DNA of 64,000 nt from Nitrospirota bacterium. GTDB taxonomy: Bacteria > Nitrospirota > UBA9217. The stretch lies in contig JBJKRX010000018.1 of assembly GCA_046704425.1 (NCBI GenBank), positions 20,385 to 84,384 of the forward strand, written 5' to 3'. Made by a program: the position numbers and the translations under genes. Below, one piece after another: positions 216 through 9,673 of the stretch (within the stretch, counting starts at the first letter, position 1; every line of letters starts with the position of its first letter). A model generated the notes under the pieces. That model was not told where the DNA came from, ran no database searches, and saw nothing but the letters and a program-made list of their open reading frames with translations.

Positions 216-1019
216 ATGAATACCGAGGACATCAGCCGGCTGCTTCGCGGCGTCCGTGCCGGTACTACGTCCGTAGCAACGGCGCTCGAGCGCCTGAAGC
301 ACCTCCCCTTCGAGGACGTGGCCTACGCTCACATCGACCACCACCGCCACCTGCGCCACGGCATGCCCGAGGTCATCTACTGCGAAGGGAAGACGCTCGC
401 CCAGGTCGCAGGCATCGCGAAGCGCATGCTCGCCACCGGAAGCGACGTCCTCGCCACGCGCGCGAACGAAGCTGCCTACCGGGCGATCCGGAAGCTCGAC
501 CGCAGGGCCGTCTATCACGAGGCCTCACGTACCGTGGTCGTTCGGCGGACCAGGCACAAGCCGACCACCGGGATCGTGACGATCCTGACCGCGGGCACGT
601 CCGACATCCCGGTGGCAGAGGAGGCCGCGGTCACGGCAGACCTGCTGGGCAGCATGGTCCGGACCGTGTATGATGTGGGCGTGGCCGGCATCCATCGGAT
701 CCTGAGCAAACGGGACGTCTTGGATGCGGCGCGCGTGATCGTGGTGGTCGCGGGCATGGACGGAGCGCTTCCGTCGGTCGTAGGTGGCCTGGTGGACAAG
801 CCCGTGATCGCCGTTCCCACGAGCGTGGGCTACGGCGCGGGGTTCCGGGGCCTTGCGCCGCTCCTGACCATGCTGAACTCCTGCGCTGCCGGGATCGCCG
901 TGATGAACATCGATAACGGATTCGGCGCGGGAGCGCTCGCGCACCGGATCAACCTCTTGGGAGAAAAGATAGCGCCGTCCCCCAAGCGTCCTGCGCGACC
1001 GCCGCGGAGCGAAAGATAA
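216..1019 (+). CDS. larB: LarB-like PurE-family carboxylase (nickel-pincer cofactor biosynthesis, pyridinium-3,5-biscarboxylic acid mononucleotide synthase)
   Basis: The 267-aa ORF has an N-terminal extension followed by a PurE/AIR-carboxylase-like core (GIVTILTAGTSDIPVAEEA...VVVAGMDGALPSVVGG). It lies immediately upstream of the larC-like gene. Confidence 0.7.
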   Translation: MNTEDISRLLRGVRAGTTSVATALERLKHLPFEDVAYAHIDHHRHLRHGMPEVIYCEGKTLAQVAGIAKRMLATGSDVLATRANEAAYRAIRKLDRRAVYHEASRTVVVRRTRHKPTTGIVTILTAGTSDIPVAEEAAVTADLLGSMVRTVYDVGVAGIHRILSKRDVLDAARVIVVVAGMDGALPSVVGGLVDKPVIAVPTSVGYGAGFRGLAPLLTMLNSCAAGIAVMNIDNGFGAGALAHRINLLGEKIAPSPKRPARPPRSER

Positions 1020-1058
1020 AGCCGCCTCTTGGTCGGCACGACCACCATCGCATACGCC

Positions 1059-2255
1059 ATGACCCTCGCATACTTCGACTGTTTTTCCGGCATATCGGGC
1101 GACATGACCCTGGGGGCACTCGTGGACGCCGGCATCTCCCTCGATGCCCTGCGGCTGGAGCTTGTGAAGCTCGGCCTCGGCGGCTACCGGATCGAGGCAG
1201 CAAAGGTCATGCGTGCAGGGATCGCCGCGACCCAGGTGCGGGTCCTGCTTGACGAAGCGAAGCAGCCTGCGCGCCGTTTAGAGGACATCAAGGCCCTCAT
1301 CGCTGCCTCCTCGCTCGATCCCGCCCTGCGCGAAAAAGGCATCGCCCTGTTCGAGCGCCTGGCGCGCGTTGAAGCGGAGGTCCACGGCACGACGCCTGAG
1401 GCGGTCCACTTTCACGAGACCGGCGCCGTGGACGCGATCGTGGACATCATGGGAACGCTCATCGGCCTGGGCCTCTTGGGGGTCACCTGCATCGCCTGTT
1501 CCGCGATCAACCTCGGGTCCGGCACCGTGGAGTCCGCGCACGGGACCCTGCCGGTACCCGCGCCTGCAACCGTTGCCCTGCTTCGGGACATCCCCTCCTA
1601 CGGCTCTGCGGTCCCGCAGGAGCTGACCACACCCACGGGCGCGCTCCTCATGAGCGGACTTGCCTCGTCCTTCGGTCCCCTGCCTGCCCTGCGCATGGCC
1701 CGCATCGGATACGGCGCAGGAGGAAGGGACATTGCGCATCGGCCGAATGTGCTTCGGCTGATCCTTGGCGAGCCGGAGACCGCCTATGCAGAAGACCAAA
1801 CAACGGTGATCGAGACGAACATCGACGATCTGAACCCCCAGGTGTACGATTATCTCCTGGAGCGGCTTATACAGGAGGGGGCGCAGGACGCCTTTCTCAC
1901 CCCCATCATCATGAAGAAAGGGCGCCCCGCAGTACTCCTCTCGGTGCTCGCGGCCCCTGCCGCTGTCGATCCGCTGATCGCTACGATCTTCCGGGAAACA
2001 AGCAGCATCGGTGTCCGTATCAACGCCTGGGACCGGAAAAAGCTCAGCCGCGAGATCGTGCTCGTCGATACGCCCTATGGTCCGATCAGAGTCAAGGTGA
2101 GCAACAGGGACGGCGAGAAGCTCACGGCCACGCCGGAGTATGAGGACTGCCGCAGGGTCGCCCAGGAGCAAGGGATCCCGCTCCGCCGCGTCATGGAAGT
2201 AGCGCGGAGCCGTTGGATGCAGCAGGAAGCACAAAAATCGGAAGAGGAGCCTTGA
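1059..2255 (+). CDS. larC: LarC-like nickel insertion protein (DUF111/UPF0272 family)
   Basis: The N-terminus reads MTLAYFDCFSGISGDMTLGALVDAG, which matches the LarC/DUF111 signature. The ATG at 1059 was chosen over the TTG at 1029 because it agrees with family N-termini. Confidence 0.75.
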   Translation: MTLAYFDCFSGISGDMTLGALVDAGISLDALRLELVKLGLGGYRIEAAKVMRAGIAATQVRVLLDEAKQPARRLEDIKALIAASSLDPALREKGIALFERLARVEAEVHGTTPEAVHFHETGAVDAIVDIMGTLIGLGLLGVTCIACSAINLGSGTVESAHGTLPVPAPATVALLRDIPSYGSAVPQELTTPTGALLMSGLASSFGPLPALRMARIGYGAGGRDIAHRPNVLRLILGEPETAYAEDQTTVIETNIDDLNPQVYDYLLERLIQEGAQDAFLTPIIMKKGRPAVLLSVLAAPAAVDPLIATIFRETSSIGVRINAWDRKKLSREIVLVDTPYGPIRVKVSNRDGEKLTATPEYEDCRRVAQEQGIPLRRVMEVARSRWMQQEAQKSEEEP

Positions 2256-2260
2256 AAACC

Positions 2261-3985
2261 ATGAGGACCCTGCGCGTTGCCGTGGCCCAGATCAACCCCG
2301 TGGTCGGCGACCTGGCCGGGAACCGGGACAAGATCATCTCGTGCATCAACCGCGCCCGGCGGATCTCGGCAGACATCGTCGTATTTCCCGAGCTCGCCTT
2401 GACCGGCTATCCTCCCGAGGACCTGGTGTTCAAACCCCAGTTCGTCAAGGACAACCTGCGAACGCTCCGGCAGATCGTGCGTGTCGTGCGCGGTATCACG
2501 GCGATCGTCGGCTTCGTGGACAAGAAGGATTGCCTCTACGACGCGGCAGCGGTCATCAGCAACGGCAGGCTCGTGTATACCTATTACAAGATGCTGTTGC
2601 CGAACTATGGGGTCTTCGACGAGTACCGGTATTTCACGCCCGGAGACCGATTCCCCGTCGTCACCGTCAAAGGCGTCAATATGGGAGTGAACATCTGCGA
2701 GGATATCTGGTTCAGCGACGGCCCGGCGCGCACCCAGGCCCGCGCCGGTGCCGAGGTCATCGTCGCGCTCAACGCATCCCCGTACCACAAGGGCAAGGGC
2801 AAGGAGCGTCGGCGCATGCTCGCCGAGCGCGCCCGGCAGAACCGCGTTGCCGTGGTCTATGCCAACACCGTGGGCGGCCAGGACGAATTGATCTTCGACG
2901 GGCACAGCATGGTCCTGGCGACCGACGGCAGCCTGCTCGCATCGGGGAAACAATTCGAGGAAGACTTTGTCGTCTGCGATCTCCGGTTCCCCGGCCCCGC
3001 CCGGAGCGGCGCGGACACGGCGTTCGGCCGGATCCGAAACGAAGAGCGGGAACGGATCGATGCGATCGTGATCTCCGACAGACCGGCGACGAAGAAGCGG
3101 CCGCTTCCTCGGCAGCGTAAGTCGCGGCCCCTCTCGCCCTGCGAGGAGGTCTATCGCGCCCTGGTGCTCGGGACGAGGGACTACGTCAAAAAGAACGGGT
3201 TTAAGGCCGCGGTCGTGGGGCTCTCGGGCGGCGTGGACTCATCGCTCGTGGCGGCCGTGGCCGTGGCGGCGATCGGGAAGGAGAACGTGCACGGCGTCTT
3301 CATGCCCTCCCCCTTCAGTTCCGCGGAGAGCCGCGAGGACGCAACCGATCTGGCCCGCCGGCTCGACATCGATTTTCAAACCATCCCGATCCACCAGGCC
3401 TTCGATGCCTACCTCAACTCCCTGCGCGGCCCCTTCGCGCATACGCGGACCGGTGTGACCGAGGAGAATCTGCAGGCGCGCGTCCGAGGAAACCTCCTGA
3501 TGGCCCTCTCGAACAAGTTCGGCTGGCTCGTCCTGACCACGGGCAACAAGAGCGAGATGTCCACGGGATACGCGACGCTCTACGGCGACATGGCCGGGGG
3601 CTTCGCCGTGATCAAAGACGTGCCCAAGACGCTAGTCTACGAAGTCTGCCGCTGCATCAACCGGCTGGCGAGCAGGGAGGTCATCCCGCGCCGCGTTCTG
3701 GTCAAGGCGCCGACAGCCGAACTCCGACCGGGCCAGAAGGACAGCGACTCCCTCCCGGTCTATCCGGTGCTCGACCCGATCCTGAAGGCCTATGTGGAAG
3801 ACGACAAGGCATTCGACGAGATGCTCCGGATGGGTTTCCGTCGGAAAGACGTGGAGCGCGTTATCCGGCTGGTCGATGCGAGCGAGTATAAGCGGCGCCA
3901 GGCCCCACCCGGCCTCAAGATCACGCCGCGCAGCCTCGGAAAGGACCGCCGCTTTCCGATCACGAACCGCTACCGAAGCTACTGA
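2261..3985 (+). CDS. nadE: Glutamine-dependent NAD+ synthetase (N-terminal CN-hydrolase domain plus C-terminal NAD synthetase domain)
   Basis: The N-terminal nitrilase-like domain reads MRTLRVAVAQINPVVGDLAGN...FPELALTGYPPEDL. The C-terminal PP-loop reads VVGLSGGVDSSLVA...LVLTTGNKSEMSTGYATLYGD. Confidence 0.85.
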   Translation: MRTLRVAVAQINPVVGDLAGNRDKIISCINRARRISADIVVFPELALTGYPPEDLVFKPQFVKDNLRTLRQIVRVVRGITAIVGFVDKKDCLYDAAAVISNGRLVYTYYKMLLPNYGVFDEYRYFTPGDRFPVVTVKGVNMGVNICEDIWFSDGPARTQARAGAEVIVALNASPYHKGKGKERRRMLAERARQNRVAVVYANTVGGQDELIFDGHSMVLATDGSLLASGKQFEEDFVVCDLRFPGPARSGADTAFGRIRNEERERIDAIVISDRPATKKRPLPRQRKSRPLSPCEEVYRALVLGTRDYVKKNGFKAAVVGLSGGVDSSLVAAVAVAAIGKENVHGVFMPSPFSSAESREDATDLARRLDIDFQTIPIHQAFDAYLNSLRGPFAHTRTGVTEENLQARVRGNLLMALSNKFGWLVLTTGNKSEMSTGYATLYGDMAGGFAVIKDVPKTLVYEVCRCINRLASREVIPRRVLVKAPTAELRPGQKDSDSLPVYPVLDPILKAYVEDDKAFDEMLRMGFRRKDVERVIRLVDASEYKRRQAPPGLKITPRSLGKDRRFPITNRYRSY

Positions 3986-4821
3986 GAACGTCGAGGGGCG
4001 GATCGGACGCGTAGGCATCCCCGGCCCGTTGCCCGCCCCCTGCGTGCGATCCGGGCAGGAGTGTCGTCGGGCTGCGGGGGCCGCACCAGCAGGTGGCGCA
4101 GATCAACGGCGGAGAGCGCGGTGAGGAGTCCTGTCTTGGTGCCGGGCCGCTCACGCTCCAGTTCTGCGAGGAGCTGCTTGACCCGATTGCGCTTCAAGTC
4201 CGGATCGTGGCAGGCCGTGCAGGCGCAGCAGACAACGGGGAAGCTCGCAGCCGACGCGAAAGCGATGATGGCCTCTTCGGGGACGTAAACGAGCGGCCGA
4301 ATGACCGTATTCCATCCGTCGTCCGCACGCAGCAGGGGGGCCAAGGCCTTGATCCTGCCGTTATAGAGCAGGTTGAGAAGCAGCCTCTCGATGAAATCGT
4401 CGCGGTGGTGGCCCAGGGCGATCTTCGTGCAACCCCATTCGCGCGCCCGGCTGTACAGCACGCCGCGCCGGATCCGGGAGCAGAGGACACAGGGCGTTTC
4501 GTCCGGGGCGAGCCGCTCCAGCAAGAGCTCATGGATCGGCGCTGCGGCTATGCGATGTTCGATGCCGCGTGACCGCACCGCATCCGCGATCGTGCCTGCA
4601 TCGAATGCAGGAAACCCGGGGTGGATTGTTACGGCAACAAGCGAGAACGGGACCGGCGCCCGTTTCCGCAGGCTGTCCAGGATATGCAGAAGGGTCCAGC
4701 TGTCCTTGCCGCCCGACAGGGCGACCAGGATGCGGTCATTCCCCTCGATGAGACCAAAATCGCCAATGGCCCGGCCGACAAGCCTGCGGATAATGCGCTC
4801 GTGTTGCAGGAGAGGATTCAT
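3979..4821 (-). CDS. ttcA: TtcA-family PP-loop ATPase (tRNA 2-thiocytidine biosynthesis-like)
   Basis: It carries the SGGKDS PP-loop (ILVALSGGKDSWTLL). It also has a CxxC pair (PCVLCSR) and the sequence CCACTACH. The start was placed at MNPLLQHERIIRRL inside the longer track ORF, and the gene overlaps the nadE end convergently by 7 nt. Confidence 0.7.
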   Translation of the reverse strand: MNPLLQHERIIRRLVGRAIGDFGLIEGNDRILVALSGGKDSWTLLHILDSLRKRAPVPFSLVAVTIHPGFPAFDAGTIADAVRSRGIEHRIAAAPIHELLLERLAPDETPCVLCSRIRRGVLYSRAREWGCTKIALGHHRDDFIERLLLNLLYNGRIKALAPLLRADDGWNTVIRPLVYVPEEAIIAFASAASFPVVCCACTACHDPDLKRNRVKQLLAELERERPGTKTGLLTALSAVDLRHLLVRPPQPDDTPARIARRGRATGRGCLRVRSAPRRSQ

Positions 4822-4865
4822 GGCATGATTGCTCGAGGCCGGCGGCGCAGGAACGATGCTTGAGC

Positions 4866-4898
4866 GGAAAAGGGCTTCCGGATGTCTTTTCCGGAAGC
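4866..4898 (-). terminator. Rho-independent terminator downstream of the lysine-rich protein gene
   Basis: On the minus strand the hairpin is CTTCCGGAaaagacaTCCGGAAG, followed by CCCTTTTCC. Confidence 0.5.
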
Positions 4899-4924
4899 CC
4901 TCTGCAGCGTACACCGACGAGTCT

Positions 4925-5320
4925 TCAGCGCCTTCTTCTGGCGGCCTTCTTTCCTTTCTTAGCCGCTTTCTTCGTCGTCGTCTTTTTCTTGGCGACCTTT
5001 TTCTTCGTCGCCTTCTTCTTCGTTGTCTTTTTCTTTGCAGCCTTCTTCTTCGTTACCTTCTTCGCCGCCTTTCTCTTGGTTACCTTTTTCTTCGCAGCTT
5101 TCTTCTTCGTTGCCTTCTTCTTTGCCGCTTTCTTCTTGGTCGCCTTCTTCGCGGCGTTCTTTTTCACTGCCGGAGCGGCTGGCCGCTGCGGTGCGCCCAC
5201 CTTGGCCGCCTCCAAGCCGCAGCAATACACCGGCTCCTCGTACATATCGCCGGTCCGCGTCACATCGATCTTTCTGCCGCACACCCTGCACTCATATTGC
5301 ACCATCTTTTCCATAGCCAT
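4925..5320 (-). CDS. Small protein: FmdB-like zinc-ribbon N-terminus fused to histone-H1/AlgP-like lysine-alanine repeat tail
   Basis: The 131-aa product begins MAMEKMVQYECRVCGRKIDV...YCCG and continues into about 85 aa of KKAAKKKATKKK repeats. It has a strong RBS (AAAGGAGGG, 8 nt from the ATG), a promoter upstream and a rho-independent terminator downstream. Confidence 0.6.
   Translation of the reverse strand: MAMEKMVQYECRVCGRKIDVTRTGDMYEEPVYCCGLEAAKVGAPQRPAAPAVKKNAAKKATKKKAAKKKATKKKAAKKKVTKRKAAKKVTKKKAAKKKTTKKKATKKKVAKKKTTTKKAAKKGKKAARRRR
4930..5170 (-). repeat. Coding tandem repeat (GCC/TTC/TTT-rich on plus strand) encoding the KKAAKK lysine-rich tail
   Basis: Imperfect 30-36 nt periodic repeats are visible in the DNA (ttcttcgt(t/c)gcc ttcttc...). 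They match the reiterated AAKKKxTKKK peptide units. Confidence 0.6.
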
Positions 5321-5450
5321 ACGCAGTACCCTCCTTTTAAGCTGATAACCCGTTGCACAACGGGCGGTAGAGCGTTCCCGGCCGGCCTGCGGCCGGTATG
5401 CCGTGGCAGTGGAGCATCCTCTTGCATGAACGTGCGTTTCTTTTTGATTA

Positions 5451-5478
5451 CTCTAGAAGCATATTGATCGGATGTCAA
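5451..5478 (-). promoter_or_regulatory. Sigma70-like promoter for the lysine-rich protein gene (TTGACA-16-TAGAGT), about 110-nt leader with an inverted repeat CCGTTG-N2-CAACGG
   Basis: It was read from the minus strand. The leader inverted repeat lies at about 5352-5365. Confidence 0.35.
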
Positions 5479-5512
5479 GAGAATTCTGATTTGCGACCGC
5501 CCTGCCGCGGTC

Positions 5513-5704
5513 TCAACACCAGATGCGGGGCTGTCGTCGCTGCGCACCAGTTGCCGCGGAGCGCCGCTGATCCGCCCGGCGCAGCTCCCAGATCTTCTCC
5601 ATGCCCTCGATGGCAGACGCGAGCGCTTCGTCCGTTTTGGCACCATCCCATTCCCGGACCTCCGCCAGGCGATACAGCTCCATGATCACGTCTTCAAGGG
5701 TCAT
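5513..5704 (-). CDS. Hypothetical small protein (63 aa)
   Basis: The product begins MTLEDVIMELYRLAEVREWDGAKTDEALASAIEGMEKIWELRR... and has an AGGAGA RBS. It sits downstream of the nrdJ terminator with no obvious own promoter, and the tail is Arg/Gln-rich, so the call is uncertain. Confidence 0.25.
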   Translation of the reverse strand: MTLEDVIMELYRLAEVREWDGAKTDEALASAIEGMEKIWELRRADQRRSAATGAQRRQPRIWC

Positions 5705-5755
5705 TGACCGTCTCCTTTTGCCCGCCGCCGATCGGCGCGGGCCCCGAGCGTGCAT

Positions 5756-5786
5756 ACAAAAAACCGGGAGAAAGGTCTCCCGGTTG
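5756..5786 (-). terminator. Rho-independent terminator after nrdJ
   Basis: On the minus strand the hairpin is CCGGGAGAccttTCTCCCGG, followed by TTTTTTG. Confidence 0.6.
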
Positions 5787-5855
5787 TCCGCTTCCTGTCC
5801 GCAGAACACTGTCCCTGTGCCGTCCGACAATCGGTTCCACACTGCCTCCGCACCG

Positions 5856-8213
5856 CTAGCCGCACTTCGAGAACCCACACCCCCGGCAGAAGGCGCATCC
5901 CTCGCCGAACTCAAGCAGGCCGCCGCAGTCCGGGCACTCCGGGCAGAGCCCGAGATGATTCTGCCTGTTGCCGCCCTTCGCGCAGTCGGACGACACGTAC
6001 GAAACCGTCGGTTCCAGGGTCGCTGCCGGTTTGTGCATCGAGACATGCCGGTGCTCCCCGGCCTCTTTCTGGTACCGTTCGAGTGCGCGTCCGATGGCGT
6101 CCGGACAGGACAGGATCGATCCTCCCTCGCCCCAGGCCGGCGAGGGGCAGCGAATGCCCTTTACCTGTTTGATGATGGATTCGATCGAGACGCCGGACCG
6201 CAACGCGAGCGACACCATGCGGGAGACGGCCTCGGACTGGCTCGCCGCGCAGCCGCCGGATTTTCCCATGGTTGAAAAGACCTCGCAAATCCCCTCGTCG
6301 TCATGGTTGATCGTAATATAGAGGTTTCCGCAGCCGGTCGGGATCTTCTGGGTCACGCCGTGGGTCAGGACCGGCCGATGGCGGGGTTTCTTCTCCTCGG
6401 CAAGCTCGGGCGAGGCCGAGGCAACCGTGACCGACTGCGCTGCGGCGCGACGCGCCTTTTCCGTGGCGCCCGTCGAAAGCACTTGCTCGTCGCGCGATCC
6501 GTCCCGGTAGATGGTGACGCCCTTGCAGCCCGTCTGGTAGGCGAGGAGATAGACGTCTTCCACATCCTTCCGGGTAGCCGCGTGGGGGAAGTTCACGGTC
6601 TTGGAGACCGCGTTATCCGTGTACTTCTGGAAGGCCGCCTGCATCTGGATGTGCCACTCCGGCGTAATGTCGTGGGCCGTTACAAACACGCTCTGAACGT
6701 CCTCGGGCACCGACGCGAGGTTCGTGCACCCGCCGTGTTCGGCGATCTCCTTCATCAGGGTTTCGGAGGAGAACCCGCGCGCCTTCGCCACGCGGTCGAA
6801 CACGGGGTTTACTTCGACGAGTTCTGCACCGTCCAGCACCTTCCGGACGAACGTGAGGGCGAAGAGCGGCTCGATGCCGCTGGAGCAACCGGCGATGATG
6901 GACAGCGTGCCGGTTGGCGCGATGGTCGTGACCGTCGCATTGCGGACCGGCGGCATACCCGGCTTATCGTAGATGCTGCCCGGGAAGTTCGGGAAGGCAC
7001 CGCGCTCCACGGCCAGCTCCCTGCTCATGGCGCGGCCCTCGTCGGTAATGAGCTGCATGATCCGTTCGCCGGTGCGCACCGCCTCGTCGGAGTTATAGGG
7101 GATGCCCATCTCCAGGAGCATATCGGCGAAACCCATGACCCCCAGTCCGATCTTCCGATTCGCCCGCGTCATCGTGGCGATCGCTTCGAGGGGATAGCGG
7201 TTCACGTCGATCACGTTGTCCAGGAAGTGGACCGCGCTCCGAACGGTGCTGCGCAGCTTGGCGAAGTCGATCTCCCTGGCGGGCGTCAGCATCCGGGCAA
7301 GGTTGATCGAGCCCAGGTTGCAGGACTCGTACGGGAGGAGCGGCTGCTCGCCGCAGGGATTGGTGGACTCGACCCTGCCGATGTGCGGCGTGGGATTGTA
7401 CTGGTTGATGCGATCGAGATAGATGATGCCCGGATCACCGTTCTTCCAGGCCATGTTCACGATGGTATCGAAGACCTTGCGCGCCTTGAGCCGTTTGACC
7501 ACAGCCCGGTCGCGCGGGGAGACCAGGTCGTACTCGCCGTCCCGCGCCACCGCGTCCATGAACGCGTCGGTAATGGCGACGGAGATATTGAAGTTGTTCA
7601 GGCGGTCGTTCTGCTGCTTGCAGGTGATGAAGTCGAGGATATCCGGGTGGTCCACCTGGAGGATGCCCATGTTCGCCCCCCGCCGCGTGCCGCCCTGCTT
7701 CACCGTCTCGGTGGCCGCGTCGAAAACGGTCATGAACGAGATAGGGCCCGAAGAGACGCCCTTCGTGGACTTGACCACGTCGTTCTTCGGACGAATCCGC
7801 GAGAAGGAAAATCCCGTGCCGCCGCCGGACTTGTGGATGAGCGCCGCATCCTTCACGGATCCGAAGATCTCGTCCATGGAGTCACCCACGGGCAGCACAA
7901 AGCAGGCCGAAAGCTGTCCCAGCTCGCGTCCCGCATTCATAAGCGTGGGGCTGTTCGGCAGGAACTCGAGGGACGTCATGAGGCCGTAGAACTCGGTGGC
8001 CGTGCGTTCCACGTCCGCGTCGGTTGCGCCGTAGGCGCGGTCCGCATCGGCAATGGTCCGCGCGACGCGCGTGAACATATCCACCGCCGTTTCGACGACT
8101 GTCCCGTCCTCATTCCGTTTGAGGTAGCGTTTTTCGAGGACCTTGAGACTGTTCTCGGAAAGGTCGAGCCCCTTGCCCGATACGGTTGTCGAAACGGAAG
8201 CTTCCCTCTTCAT
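5856..8213 (-). CDS. nrdJ: Adenosylcobalamin-dependent ribonucleoside-diphosphate reductase (class II RNR) with C-terminal zinc-finger tail
   Basis: The 785-aa ORF shows class II RNR motifs (NPCGEQPLLPYESCNLGSINL, TIAPTGTLS) and a C-terminal cysteine cluster (CPECPDCGG...CAFCRGCG). The RBS is GGAGG. Confidence 0.9.
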   Translation of the reverse strand: MKREASVSTTVSGKGLDLSENSLKVLEKRYLKRNEDGTVVETAVDMFTRVARTIADADRAYGATDADVERTATEFYGLMTSLEFLPNSPTLMNAGRELGQLSACFVLPVGDSMDEIFGSVKDAALIHKSGGGTGFSFSRIRPKNDVVKSTKGVSSGPISFMTVFDAATETVKQGGTRRGANMGILQVDHPDILDFITCKQQNDRLNNFNISVAITDAFMDAVARDGEYDLVSPRDRAVVKRLKARKVFDTIVNMAWKNGDPGIIYLDRINQYNPTPHIGRVESTNPCGEQPLLPYESCNLGSINLARMLTPAREIDFAKLRSTVRSAVHFLDNVIDVNRYPLEAIATMTRANRKIGLGVMGFADMLLEMGIPYNSDEAVRTGERIMQLITDEGRAMSRELAVERGAFPNFPGSIYDKPGMPPVRNATVTTIAPTGTLSIIAGCSSGIEPLFALTFVRKVLDGAELVEVNPVFDRVAKARGFSSETLMKEIAEHGGCTNLASVPEDVQSVFVTAHDITPEWHIQMQAAFQKYTDNAVSKTVNFPHAATRKDVEDVYLLAYQTGCKGVTIYRDGSRDEQVLSTGATEKARRAAAQSVTVASASPELAEEKKPRHRPVLTHGVTQKIPTGCGNLYITINHDDEGICEVFSTMGKSGGCAASQSEAVSRMVSLALRSGVSIESIIKQVKGIRCPSPAWGEGGSILSCPDAIGRALERYQKEAGEHRHVSMHKPAATLEPTVSYVSSDCAKGGNRQNHLGLCPECPDCGGLLEFGEGCAFCRGCGFSKCG

Positions 8214-8357
8214 GTCACTCCCTCCTCCGGTGCAATATGGAAACCCTTCGAGTCCGCGCCGGCCTCACAGCCGGCATACCATGCCTGCGATGGTGATAAC
8301 AGCGGCCCCTGTCCTCCACACGGGGAGGGAGGATACCTTATTTAGTGGAACAGGGTA

Positions 8358-8387
8358 ATTATAGACACAATATCTTGTGCTTGTCAA
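8358..8387 (-). promoter_or_regulatory. nrdJ promoter (TTGACA-18-TATAAT) with NrdR-box-like palindrome in the spacer (plus-strand ACACAATATCTTGTGC at about 8365-8380)
   Basis: The -10 is a perfect TATAAT and the -35 is TTGACA. The 16-bp palindrome matches the NrdR box consensus acaCwAtATaTwGtgt at 14 of 16 positions. The leader is about 150 nt. Confidence 0.55.
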
Positions 8388-8548
8388 ACTATTTTTAAAA
8401 AAAGTATCGCGAAGAGAAAACTACAGAATAGGCTTATTTCATGCGGCGTTTCTGAGGGATACCCGCGTTCCGGATGCGCCAGATAAGGCGAAAATAAAAC
8501 AATGCTTGAAAACCGCAAGCCAGGCGCGCTCTTCCCGCCTCCCCTGTG

Positions 8549-8782
8549 CTACTGCGTCCGCGCTTTATGGCAGTACAGGCACTGTTCTTTCGGCGGATGC
8601 TTCGGGCGAAGGGGTTCCTTCCCCTGCGGTCCATGACATGCAAGACACGATGCGTTCGTTGCGGCGTTCCGATGCGCCGCATCGGCAGGCAGAAACGGGG
8701 CCTTCCGGCCGCGCGCGGAGAGGAAGAAGAGGAACACAAGGATGAGGACGACAGCAATCGGCAATCCGAGTTTTTTCAGCAT
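8549..8782 (-). CDS. Small membrane-anchored dihaem c-type cytochrome (77 aa)
   Basis: The product is MLKKLGLPIAVVLILVFLFFL (a transmembrane helix) followed by two CxxCH motifs (CLACH, CLYCH). GGGAG lies upstream of the ATG. Confidence 0.45.
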   Translation of the reverse strand: MLKKLGLPIAVVLILVFLFFLSARGRKAPFLPADAAHRNAATNASCLACHGPQGKEPLRPKHPPKEQCLYCHKARTQ

Positions 8783-8866
8783 GACGGGTCAGCTCCCGGG
8801 ACGATCGATCGCAGGCTGTTCCGCAGTTCGCAAATCGCCCCCGCCGCGCAGAACGGGGACAACGGA

Positions 8867-9673
8867 TCATTTGCTCAGTTCTTCGTAGGCCGTTGGCCGC
8901 CGGTTGGTGAGAAATCCCCAGGTGCGCATCGCTGCTTCGCGCTCAGCCGGATCGATATCTGCCATGACGATGGCCTCGGTGCCGCCTGCGCGCTCGGACG
9001 CAGGTTCTCCCCAGGGGTCGACGCAGAAGCTCCTGCCGTAAAAGGCGAGATCCCCCTCCTGCCCCACCCGGTTCACCCGAAAGAGGAACAGGTTGTTGGC
9101 AAAGGCACTCGCCGCAAGGGCGCGCTCCCAGAGCAGATGCGTGTCCTGCGAAGCGGCCGTGGGGGCAAGGACGATCTCTGCACCCCGCAGGGCCAGGATG
9201 CGCGCACCTTCGGGGAAAAGATTGTCCCAGCAGATCTGGATGCCGATCTTGCCCCGGGACGTTGCGAAGACCGGAAATCCTCCGTCGCCGGGGGAGAAGT
9301 AGAATTGCTCCCGGTAGTGGGGCAGGTCGGGAATATGGACCTTCCGGTACACGCCGAGCAGCCTGCCGTTGTCGAAGACCGCGGCGCTGTTGTAATAGTT
9401 CCCTGCTGCGGATTCAAAGAAGGGGACGACGAGGACGGTTTGCGAGGTTTCAGAAAAGCTGCGGAAGTCTTCCAGGGGCCCGTCCGCGACACCCTGTGCC
9501 AGCGAGAACAGCGACGGGTCTGCCTGCTCCGGGAACCAGGGCGTGAGAAACAGCGCCGGATAGCACAGGATGCCGGCACCTTTCTCGACGGCGACCGTGG
9601 CCATGTCGAGGGCGCGCTGGACATTGCGCTCCCGGTCCCTACCTGCGCTTATCTGGATGCCGGCGATTCGCAT
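8867..9673 (-). CDS. Carbon-nitrogen hydrolase family protein (nitrilase/amidase superfamily)
   Basis: The product begins MRIAGIQISAGRD and contains KIGIQICWDNLFPE. The layout is typical of a CN hydrolase with a Glu, Lys, Cys triad. Confidence 0.75.
   Translation of the reverse strand: MRIAGIQISAGRDRERNVQRALDMATVAVEKGAGILCYPALFLTPWFPEQADPSLFSLAQGVADGPLEDFRSFSETSQTVLVVPFFESAAGNYYNSAAVFDNGRLLGVYRKVHIPDLPHYREQFYFSPGDGGFPVFATSRGKIGIQICWDNLFPEGARILALRGAEIVLAPTAASQDTHLLWERALAASAFANNLFLFRVNRVGQEGDLAFYGRSFCVDPWGEPASERAGGTEAIVMADIDPAEREAAMRTWGFLTNRRPTAYEELSK

Follow-up and report, generated by a model that had tools for sequence, protein, structure and literature searches.

In a 64,000-nucleotide stretch of DNA from a Nitrospirota bacterium (here called the window; GC content, 62.7%), a small gene was found to encode a protein that joins a putative metal-binding, desulforedoxin-like head to a long lysine-rich tail. 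By analogy with characterised systems, we give a probability of about 50% to the reading that the protein is abundant and binds nucleic acids (the nucleoid) non-specifically, with a head that dimerises in a metal-dependent manner. The open reading frame (4925..5320, minus strand) specifies a protein of 131 amino acids, with a mass of 14.5 kDa and a calculated pI of 10.8. The protein opens with MAMEKMVQYECRVCGRKIDVTRTGDMYEEPVYCCG, an Ala/Pro stretch, LEAAKVGAPQRPAAPAV, joins the head to the Lys/Ala/Thr repeats, and the C-terminal end of the tail is RRRR. The start codon was placed at the ATG at 5320, five codons upstream of the 'MVQYEC' quoted in the original prediction, in agreement with the homologues, which open with MGIERIMQYEC or MAMERIMQYEC. 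The features of the locus, in the direction of transcription, are:

5450..5478, minus strand: sigma-70-type promoter TTGACA-17-TAGAGT, with an A-rich stretch 5' of it (consensus scan)
5349..5364, minus strand: 5'UTR hairpin CCCGUU-GUGC-AACGGG (per-sequence folds of related loci)
5338..5348, minus strand: single-stranded 5'UTR motif U(U/C)AUCAGCUUA, between the hairpin and the ribosome-binding site (41-locus alignment)
5330..5336, minus strand: ribosome-binding site AAGGAGG, 9 nt 5' of the ATG (read from the sequence)
5201..5320, minus strand: desulforedoxin-like Cys4 head, residues 1-40
5216..5290, minus strand: Cys motif (Cys11, Cys14, Cys33, Cys34)
5165..5200, minus strand: Ala/Pro-rich flexible linker VGAPQRPAAPAV, residues 41-52 (AF2 model and relatives)
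4928..5164, minus strand: Lys/Ala/Thr pentapeptide-repeat tail (A/T/V)(A/T)KKK, residues 53-131 (composition and period of 5)
4925..4927, minus strand: stop codon
4868..4900, minus strand: intrinsic-terminator-like hairpin GGGCUUCCGGA-7 nt-UCCGGAAGCCC, followed by UUUU (fold)

The promoter-like site matched the consensus at 10 of 12 positions and was the only one of its kind returned by the consensus scan of 4700..5900. At the other end of the gene, the terminator-like hairpin is GC-rich and has 11 base pairs, with a calculated energy of -28.2 kcal/mol (z = -3.2), and none of 200 shuffled sequences was as stable; a simple scan left it unlisted because its U-run has only four residues. These signals, together with the ribosome-binding site, bear out the original prediction of a real gene equipped with a promoter, a ribosome-binding site and a terminator of its own. 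The alternative that the reading frame is a low-complexity artefact was ruled out, as the two-part protein is encoded in more than 110 genomes, and the long plus-strand frames rich in Phe and Leu (FFFF/LLLL) are the artefacts, by-products of the tail composition. The gene is real, small and probably well expressed. Both its promoter and its ribosome-binding site are strong and conserved, which suggests high expression, and from this we infer that the protein is abundant.

Next, the 260 nt located 5' of the start codon were aligned for 41 related loci of subfamily A. The CTTGACATTT block, the -10 consensus TTCTA.A.TA and the upstream A-tract were each kept in at least 80% of these loci, the 17-nt promoter spacing was conserved, AAGGAG was kept in at least 90%, and the single-stranded 5'UTR motif appeared as conserved columns. 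When the sequences were folded one by one, 37 of the 41 loci formed a hairpin with 4 bp or more, with 35 distinct hairpin sequences, and inspection of the printed folds showed that most of them have the form CCCG...CGGG directly before the conserved motif. In a fixed-register alignment, 73% of the cells paired, compared with 68% for shuffled sequences. Covariation scored 0.168, a value reached by 13 of 500 shuffles, versus 0.114. Pairing and covariation thus lend modest support to conservation of the hairpin. RNAalifold gave no consensus structure on the 41-locus 5'UTR alignment because the variable loop length shifts the register, and the global fold of the 5'UTR was not more stable than shuffles (z = -0.12). 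An Rfam search returned no RNA family in 3500..9000 at E <= 1, nor in the whole window at gathering thresholds, so neither a cobalamin riboswitch near nrdJ nor a known RNA element in the 5'UTR was detected; no tRNAs were found. The conservation of promoter, hairpin, motif and ribosome-binding site across the 41 loci indicates that the gene is an independently transcribed unit whose signals are under selection, and the conserved hairpin and motif suggest post-transcriptional control.

The head was then compared with known metal-binding domains. Across 54 diverse heads, C11, C14, G15, P30, C33, C34 and G35 were invariant, and the four cysteines were likewise invariant in 113 unique homologous heads; the spacing between the two pairs was always 18 residues, and the second pair was always an adjacent CC (CxxC-18-CC). 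The desulfoferrodoxin N-terminal domain model, PF06397, matched 19 of 21 members, below threshold, and the FmdB-type model PF09723 matched 3 of the 21 at E <= 1. With 54 members and E <= 0.01, the counts were 17 and 2, respectively. The window protein itself scored 9.9-13.1 bits against PF06397, where the cut-off is 23 and the alignment covered the first knuckle only. Two relatives passed this cut-off, those of L047 (31.0 bits) and L064 (28.4 bits), in alignments spanning positions 2-35 of the 36 in the profile. TIGR00320 and TIGR00319, both desulfoferrodoxin models, gave the best NCBIfam matches of the relatives, below cut-off. In profile-profile comparisons with hhalign, the reference was made of Desulfovibrio gigas desulforedoxin, identical to 1DXG/1CFW in the PDB, and two desulfoferrodoxin N-domains. 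The 54-sequence family alignment matched this reference with 94.1% probability (E = 1.3e-7, 32 columns), and the probability climbed from 79% to 90% and then 94% with alignment depth. The shared pattern was Y-x-C-x-x-C-G-x-x-(I/V)-x-V...G...CCG-x-E, with a 3-residue insertion on the side of the window family.

Structure prediction pointed in the same direction. The AF2 model of the head (pLDDT 80) contains two knuckle hairpins, as in the desulforedoxin fold, and fold searches ranked desulforedoxin and desulfoferrodoxin first or among the first hits. With this model as query, Foldseek ranked desulfoferrodoxin 2ji2_B first (probability 0.97), with 1vzg and 1dfx further down; generic zinc ribbons (MCM, bL33, RbpA) came close behind, which is expected for a knuckle domain of 40 residues. 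A sequence search of the PDB with head profiles gave insignificant C2H2 and zinc-ribbon matches, driven by 'YxCxxCG', and desulforedoxin or desulfoferrodoxin at E 0.4-1; as all these matches are weak, the sequence search alone is not decisive. Judged by profiles and models together, the head is a divergent desulforedoxin-type, rubredoxin-knuckle Cys4 domain, with the window protein itself below the curated cut-off, so that its membership follows from transitive homology and allows for the loop insertion relative to desulforedoxin.

The head had originally been taken for an FmdB-type zinc ribbon, and a related explanation is that it is purely structural, with no redox or iron chemistry, and simply joined to an H1-like tail. 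It was noted in this regard that the head alone matched TIGR02605 with 15.0 bits (E = 0.019) and the full-length protein with 9.5 bits, that zinc ribbons are among the fold matches, and that zinc in vivo is conceivable, given that desulforedoxin accepts other metals. However, the TIGR02605 cut-off is 31.3 bits, the FmdB models matched few members and the desulforedoxin models most of them, and the second ligand pair is an invariant CC instead of CxxC. The FmdB assignment is therefore replaced by the desulforedoxin-type one, and we regard the purely structural zinc ribbon as quite unlikely.

Desulforedoxin is a homodimer with one iron in a distorted tetrahedral Cys4 site; its Fe(III) form absorbs near 370 and 507 nm and shows a rhombic high-spin EPR signal. 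Reconstitution is also possible with other metals, among them Zn, Cd and Ga, and 1cfw, one of the PDB entries in the fold matches, is the Ga-substituted form. To our knowledge, all characterised desulforedoxin-type relatives bind iron. The conserved cysteines suggest that the head of the window protein would hold one metal ion, iron or zinc, through the four cysteines, and by analogy it probably forms a homodimer like desulforedoxin.

The second module was analyzed by composition and periodicity. The 96 residues that follow the CCG motif contain 43.8% Lys, 25% Ala, 10% Thr and 6% Arg, and their 48 Lys and Arg residues are accompanied by a single acidic residue, giving a net charge of about +47. 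Lys/Arg autocorrelation was 0.59 at lag 5 and 0.48 at lag 10, and these peaks define the repeat unit as the pentad listed above. The likeness in composition to H1, AlgP and Hc tails that had been noticed originally thus stood. The description of the repeats as near-perfect was overstated: the pentad period and a 15-nt register in the DNA are there, but the copies are only 62-75% identical (68-85% matches with TRF). Since the DNA repeats are degenerate, rapid slippage is disfavoured, and phase variation by this route was ruled out, with no long perfect repeats present. No match above threshold was obtained with H1-like families; HC2 (PF07382) scored 9.3 bits against a threshold of 40, and NF038053 17.6 against 80. 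On sequence grounds, the likeness to these families is hence compositional and not homologous. A single-sequence AF2 prediction of the full-length protein (pTM 0.33) drew residues 54-130 as one long helix with pLDDT of 82-96 and gave residues 36-53, which include the linker, a pLDDT below 50; this tail helix is best read as the helical propensity of an Ala/Lys sequence in a model, not as a stable fold.

Homologues of the head were collected in three ways. A word-indexed search with residues 1-52 returned six close relatives. Those that are full-length have a Lys-rich tail, and the remaining three, which are short or end in unrelated sequence, are probably truncated or frameshifted calls on small contigs. 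When a head profile was run with HMMER over 1.84 billion cluster representatives, only 28 clusters were matched at E <= 1e-3, indicating that the family is small, and their sequences again showed a head and a basic tail with few exceptions. In one exception, from a single 1.4-kb contig, an HNH nuclease domain replaces the tail (26.6 bits versus 21.4); two or three proteins have other C-terminal regions, and some are evident frameshifted reads. Finally, a degenerate DNA pattern for C-x2-C-G-x14-P-x-[YF]-C-C-G was scanned over one genome per GTDB species and found at least 119 stretches. After translation, at least 117 proteins from at least about 112 genomes were genuine, all from Nitrospirota/Nitrospirae among the matches listed; where class and order were given, these were Thermodesulfovibrionia and Thermodesulfovibrionales, including Thermodesulfovibrio and Candidatus Sulfobium among the matches listed. 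Four matches outside the phylum (Nocardiopsis, Acidobacteriota, Micrarchaeota and Methanobacteriota) were attributed to chance, as they contain stop codons or Cys-rich repeats. The absence of homologues combining both parts had been named as grounds for rejecting the two-module protein; instead, every genuine homologue among the matches listed has the CxxC-18-CC head and a basic tail of 18-125 aa. The family can thus be recognised by the scanned signature followed by a basic tail. The locus closest to the window among the matches listed was L070, and several genomes have two paralogues, either in tandem (L019, L029, L036) or unlinked (L022/L100, L037/L101).

Tail length varied between strains and species, as had been anticipated from the repeats. 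Among the at least 117 proteins, the median tail was 52 aa, with 39% Lys, 20% Ala and a median net charge of +0.39 per residue, and the heads were slightly acidic, with a median charge of -2. The linkers of the relatives are rich in Ala and Pro and variable in sequence. Within the subfamily of the window, the heads are nearly identical and the tails range from 53 to 125 aa, and an in-frame block of 22 aa separates P0001 (88 aa) from P0034 (110 aa), two members of one 90%-identity cluster. This pattern, in which length changes and charge is kept, suggests that the tail is under compositional selection only, a behaviour typical among tails that bind polyanions non-specifically.

The window protein falls under no curated model of Pfam or NCBIfam, and the few source annotations of the family read 'hypothetical protein' or 'uncharacterized Zn finger protein', or are plainly misnomers. 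The full-text literature search gave nothing on the family or on an architecture of desulforedoxin-like head and H1-like tail. The fusion of these two known kinds of module, its restriction to Thermodesulfovibrionia among the matches listed and its conservation there appear to be undescribed.

Taken together, these data are consistent with the following mechanism. The two knuckles, CxxCG and CCG, would hold one metal ion through the four cysteines; this would be iron, as in the characterised relatives, with zinc conceivable. The head would homodimerise by analogy with desulforedoxin, and from it a flexible Ala/Pro linker would lead to a tail of about 80 residues made of (A/T)(A/T)KKK pentads and carrying about +47. 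Such a tail would bind polyanions without sequence specificity, chromosomal DNA being the likeliest and RNA and polyphosphate the alternatives, and a dimeric head would present two tails, so that DNA could be bridged or condensed, as by the C-terminal domain of H1, Hc1/Hc2 or the HupB tail. In known proteins, Lys-rich tails provide DNA binding or association with polyphosphate granules, as in AlgP (PMC9239181), Mycobacterium smegmatis Ku (PMC3553676) and actinobacterial TopA (PMC7398561). By this analogy, DNA is most plausibly the ligand of the tail, which could equally bind RNA, ribosomes or polyphosphate. The relative with an HNH domain, a domain that acts on nucleic acids, speaks for a nucleic-acid role, with the proviso that it comes from one short contig.

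Two other ligands were considered with these data. The protein could be a lineage-specific ribosome-associated protein or an RNA chaperone, whose head would resemble the small zinc-ribbon ribosomal proteins. Nevertheless, Pfam and NCBIfam scans revealed no similarity to any ribosomal protein family, the adjacent CC is absent from zinc-ribbon ribosomal proteins, and such extreme variability in tail length would be unusual for a stoichiometric ribosomal component; we consider this explanation rather improbable. Lys-rich tails bind polyphosphate electrostatically, and a granule protein would use the tail to bind polyphosphate and the head to multimerise. The composition of the tail is indeed like that of AlgP, which localises to polyphosphate granules (PMC9239181). 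Against this, the protein has no homology to AlgP, and neither ppk, ppx nor any other polyphosphate gene recurred beside the gene in 116 loci, making a polyphosphate-granule protein very unlikely.

The genomic neighbourhood was analyzed by calling the open reading frames around the gene in these 116 loci, clustering them and naming the clusters with Pfam. In the window, the upstream gene is nrdJ, encoding a class II (B12-dependent) ribonucleotide reductase, at 5856..8213 (Pfam Ribonuc_red_lgN/lgC and TSCPD). An nrdJ gene lay no more than three genes away in 44 of the 116 loci. The 45 loci of the window's subfamily have the order nrdJ, a conserved 63-codon reading frame, the gene, ttcA (a PP-loop, TtcA-like gene) and a gene with an MshEN domain. 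At least three divergent subfamilies with short tails have the gene immediately 5' of nrdJ in the same orientation, separated from it by 0-223 nt (L002, L008, L019, L029, L036, L047, L064, L079; four of them with gaps of at most 27 nt), and a B12-binding radical-SAM gene is usually next. About ten further loci have the gene directly upstream of the B12-binding radical-SAM gene. In other subfamilies it is flanked on one side by a divergent Dus gene and on the other by a small membrane protein and a convergent gene of the histone-deacetylase family, or its neighbours are CxxCxxCC/DUF3842/YtxH genes.

This recurrent linkage, including the spacing of 0-27 nt upstream of nrdJ in several lineages, is not explained by a general nucleoid role and counts against our main reading. 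It would fit an accessory factor of B12-dependent ribonucleotide reduction, either a redox- or iron-sensing DNA-binding regulator of nrdJ or a redox or tethering partner of NrdJ, the more so as the link to nrdJ and the B12-radical-SAM gene outlasts changes in gene order and a drop in nrdJ identity to 50-60%. Still, inherited synteny would suffice to explain the linkage, as all the genomes among the matches listed belong to one class, and nrdJ is absent from the surrounding 8 kb in many loci, those flanked by Dus/histone-deacetylase-like or CxxCxxCC/DUF3842/YtxH genes. In addition, the gene has its own promoter and terminator in the window, nrdJ has a terminator of its own at 5762..5785, a Pfam scan found no ATP-cone or other nucleotide-sensing domain, and a tail of +47 would be odd for a specific redox partner. 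On balance, such an accessory role is unlikely. Also doubtful, and somewhat less favoured, is a redox- or iron-switchable chromatin protein, in which an Fe(Cys)4 centre would control folding and dimerisation of the head, and thus DNA bridging by the two tails, tying nucleoid compaction or repression of the nrdJ region to oxygen or iron and to B12-dependent dNTP supply in the anaerobic Thermodesulfovibrionia.

In the matched structures and models, desulforedoxin domains stand alone or form the N-terminus of desulfoferrodoxin, an enzyme of oxygen defence; here, the domain is carried on an H1-like tail, in a conserved gene with strong expression signals across a class of anaerobic Nitrospirota. 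Should it prove to be a major binder of the nucleoid, RNA or polyphosphate, the protein would fill a gap in knowledge of how chromosomes are organised in a poorly studied phylum. It would also give a simple and testable example of a polycationic tail coupled to a metal or redox centre, and the variable tail provides a natural series on how length tunes binding. If the redox or iron switch holds, nucleoid-associated proteins would gain a new class and the desulforedoxin fold a new role.

Among known systems, NrdR, the zinc ribbon and ATP-cone repressor of nrd genes, shares with the window protein a small N-terminal Cys4 domain and a link to ribonucleotide reductase genes. The window protein differs in having no ATP-cone and no similarity to NrdR detected in Pfam and NCBIfam scans, and NrdR is not usually encoded beside nrd genes. 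FmdB/CxxC_CxxC_SSSS proteins (TIGR02605, PF09723) are also small, with an N-terminal Cys4 knuckle of the form (M)xxYEYxCxxCG and a low-complexity tail, but their second pair is CxxC, and the HMM scores were below cut-off. The H1-like set, comprising AlgP (PMC9239181), Hc1/Hc2 (PF07382), Burkholderia NF038053, the PAKKA repeats of mycobacterial Ku/HupB (PMC3553676) and TopA (PMC7398561), has in common with our protein short-period Lys/Ala(/Pro/Thr) repeats, very high positive charge, variable repeat number and no sequence conservation past composition; there is no detectable homology, and none of its members has a Cys4 metal domain as the structured module. The closest systems are desulforedoxin (D. 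gigas Dx; 1DXG/1CFW) and the N-domain of desulfoferrodoxin/2Fe-superoxide reductase (PF06397, TIGR00319; 1DFX, 1VZG, 2JI1). These share a length of about 36-40 residues, the pattern Y-x-C-x-x-C-G-x-x-(V/I)-x-V...G...(hydrophobic)(hydrophobic)-C-C-G-x-(D/E) with adjacent cysteines, and a two-hairpin fold on which the predicted head superposes at 1.4 Å. In the window family, however, the inter-knuckle loop has 18 residues, compared with 15 in desulforedoxin and desulfoferrodoxin, and a Pro before the CC is invariant; furthermore, the head is fused to a long basic tail, whereas the known domain is found alone or joined to a superoxide-reductase domain.

The seemingly long spacer between nrdJ, the upstream class II (B12-dependent) ribonucleotide reductase gene, and the gene for the protein with the desulforedoxin-like head and Lys-rich tail is explained by a small, conserved open reading frame that occupies it. 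Together with the leader of the latter gene, this region contains the following features:

5513..5704, minus strand: 63-codon ORF, flanked by the terminator of nrdJ and the Lys-rich-tail gene's promoter
5338..5364, minus strand: hairpin and single-stranded motif in the 5'UTR of the Lys-rich-tail gene, with counterparts at this place in about 33-37 of 41 related loci

The product of the 63-codon ORF is MTLEDVIMELYRLAEVREWDGAKTDEALASAIEGMEKIWELRRADQRRSAATGAQRRQPRIWC, and an AAGGAG site, separate from that of the Lys-rich-tail gene, lies about 7 nt upstream of it. When related loci were searched with tblastn, the ORF was found at the same position in 38 of them, with 54-76% identity, and the homologues ended in KKQPR(I/V)W(C/S); in locus L001, the ORF was called as a 63-aa gene. 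The product had no match in Pfam, NCBIfam or PDB.

The base of the 5'UTR hairpin, CCCG/CGGG, is conserved in these about 33-37 loci, and the upper stem is variable (GUG/CAC, GCG/CGC, GUU/AAC or GGG/CCC), with changes that are apparently compensatory. The hairpin is directly followed by the invariant-looking single-stranded motif U(U/C)AUCAGCUUA and then by the ribosome-binding site. No match to this region was found in Rfam, and the hairpin and motif may act in post-transcriptional control or in autoregulation. Upstream of nrdJ itself (gene at 5856..8213, upstream stretch at 8214..8545), neither a cobalamin riboswitch nor another Rfam element was detected, even at E ≤ 1. The encoded B12-dependent ribonucleotide reductase has a Cys-rich stretch at its C-terminus, CPECPDCGG...CAFCRGCGFSKCG.

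In several genomes, the family is represented by two paralogues, of which one is short-tailed (18-26 aa) and one has a longer tail. They are arranged as follows:

Tandem paralogues: loci L019, L029 and L036
Paralogues at different places of the same genome: locus pairs L022/L100, L037/L101 and L056/L120

Short-tail paralogues lie directly upstream of nrdJ, with a gap of 0-223 nt, in L002, L008, L019, L029, L036, L047, L064 and L079, where a B12-binding radical-SAM gene (PF02310 + PF04055) is usually next. Other members, among them those of L034, L045, L060, L100 and L101, are directly upstream of the radical-SAM gene alone. The family is linked repeatedly to two B12-dependent enzymes.

In one subfamily (L013, L018, L022, L037, L076, L091, L099, L108, L118 and L120), the neighbours are a gene for dihydrouridine synthase (Dus) in divergent orientation, a gene whose product is predicted to be a small membrane protein and, in convergent orientation, a gene of the histone-deacetylase family (PF00850). 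The closeness of a lysine deacetylase gene to that of a 40%-lysine protein is suggestive; the PF00850 gene is on the opposite strand from the family gene, and the proximity may be plain synteny. In the protein relative P0013, an HNH endonuclease domain, which scored 26.6 bits against a cut-off of 21.4, stands in place of the Lys-rich tail. This arrangement occurred once, on a short JGI metagenome contig of 1,367 bp, so that the fusion could be genuine or could have arisen in assembly.

At the start of the window, the translations of two further ORFs were read:

216..1019, plus strand: ORF
1029..2255, plus strand: ORF

Judged from these translations, we take them to resemble LarB- and LarC-type genes of nickel-pincer cofactor synthesis; they are adjoined by a putative NAD synthetase-like gene (2213..3985).
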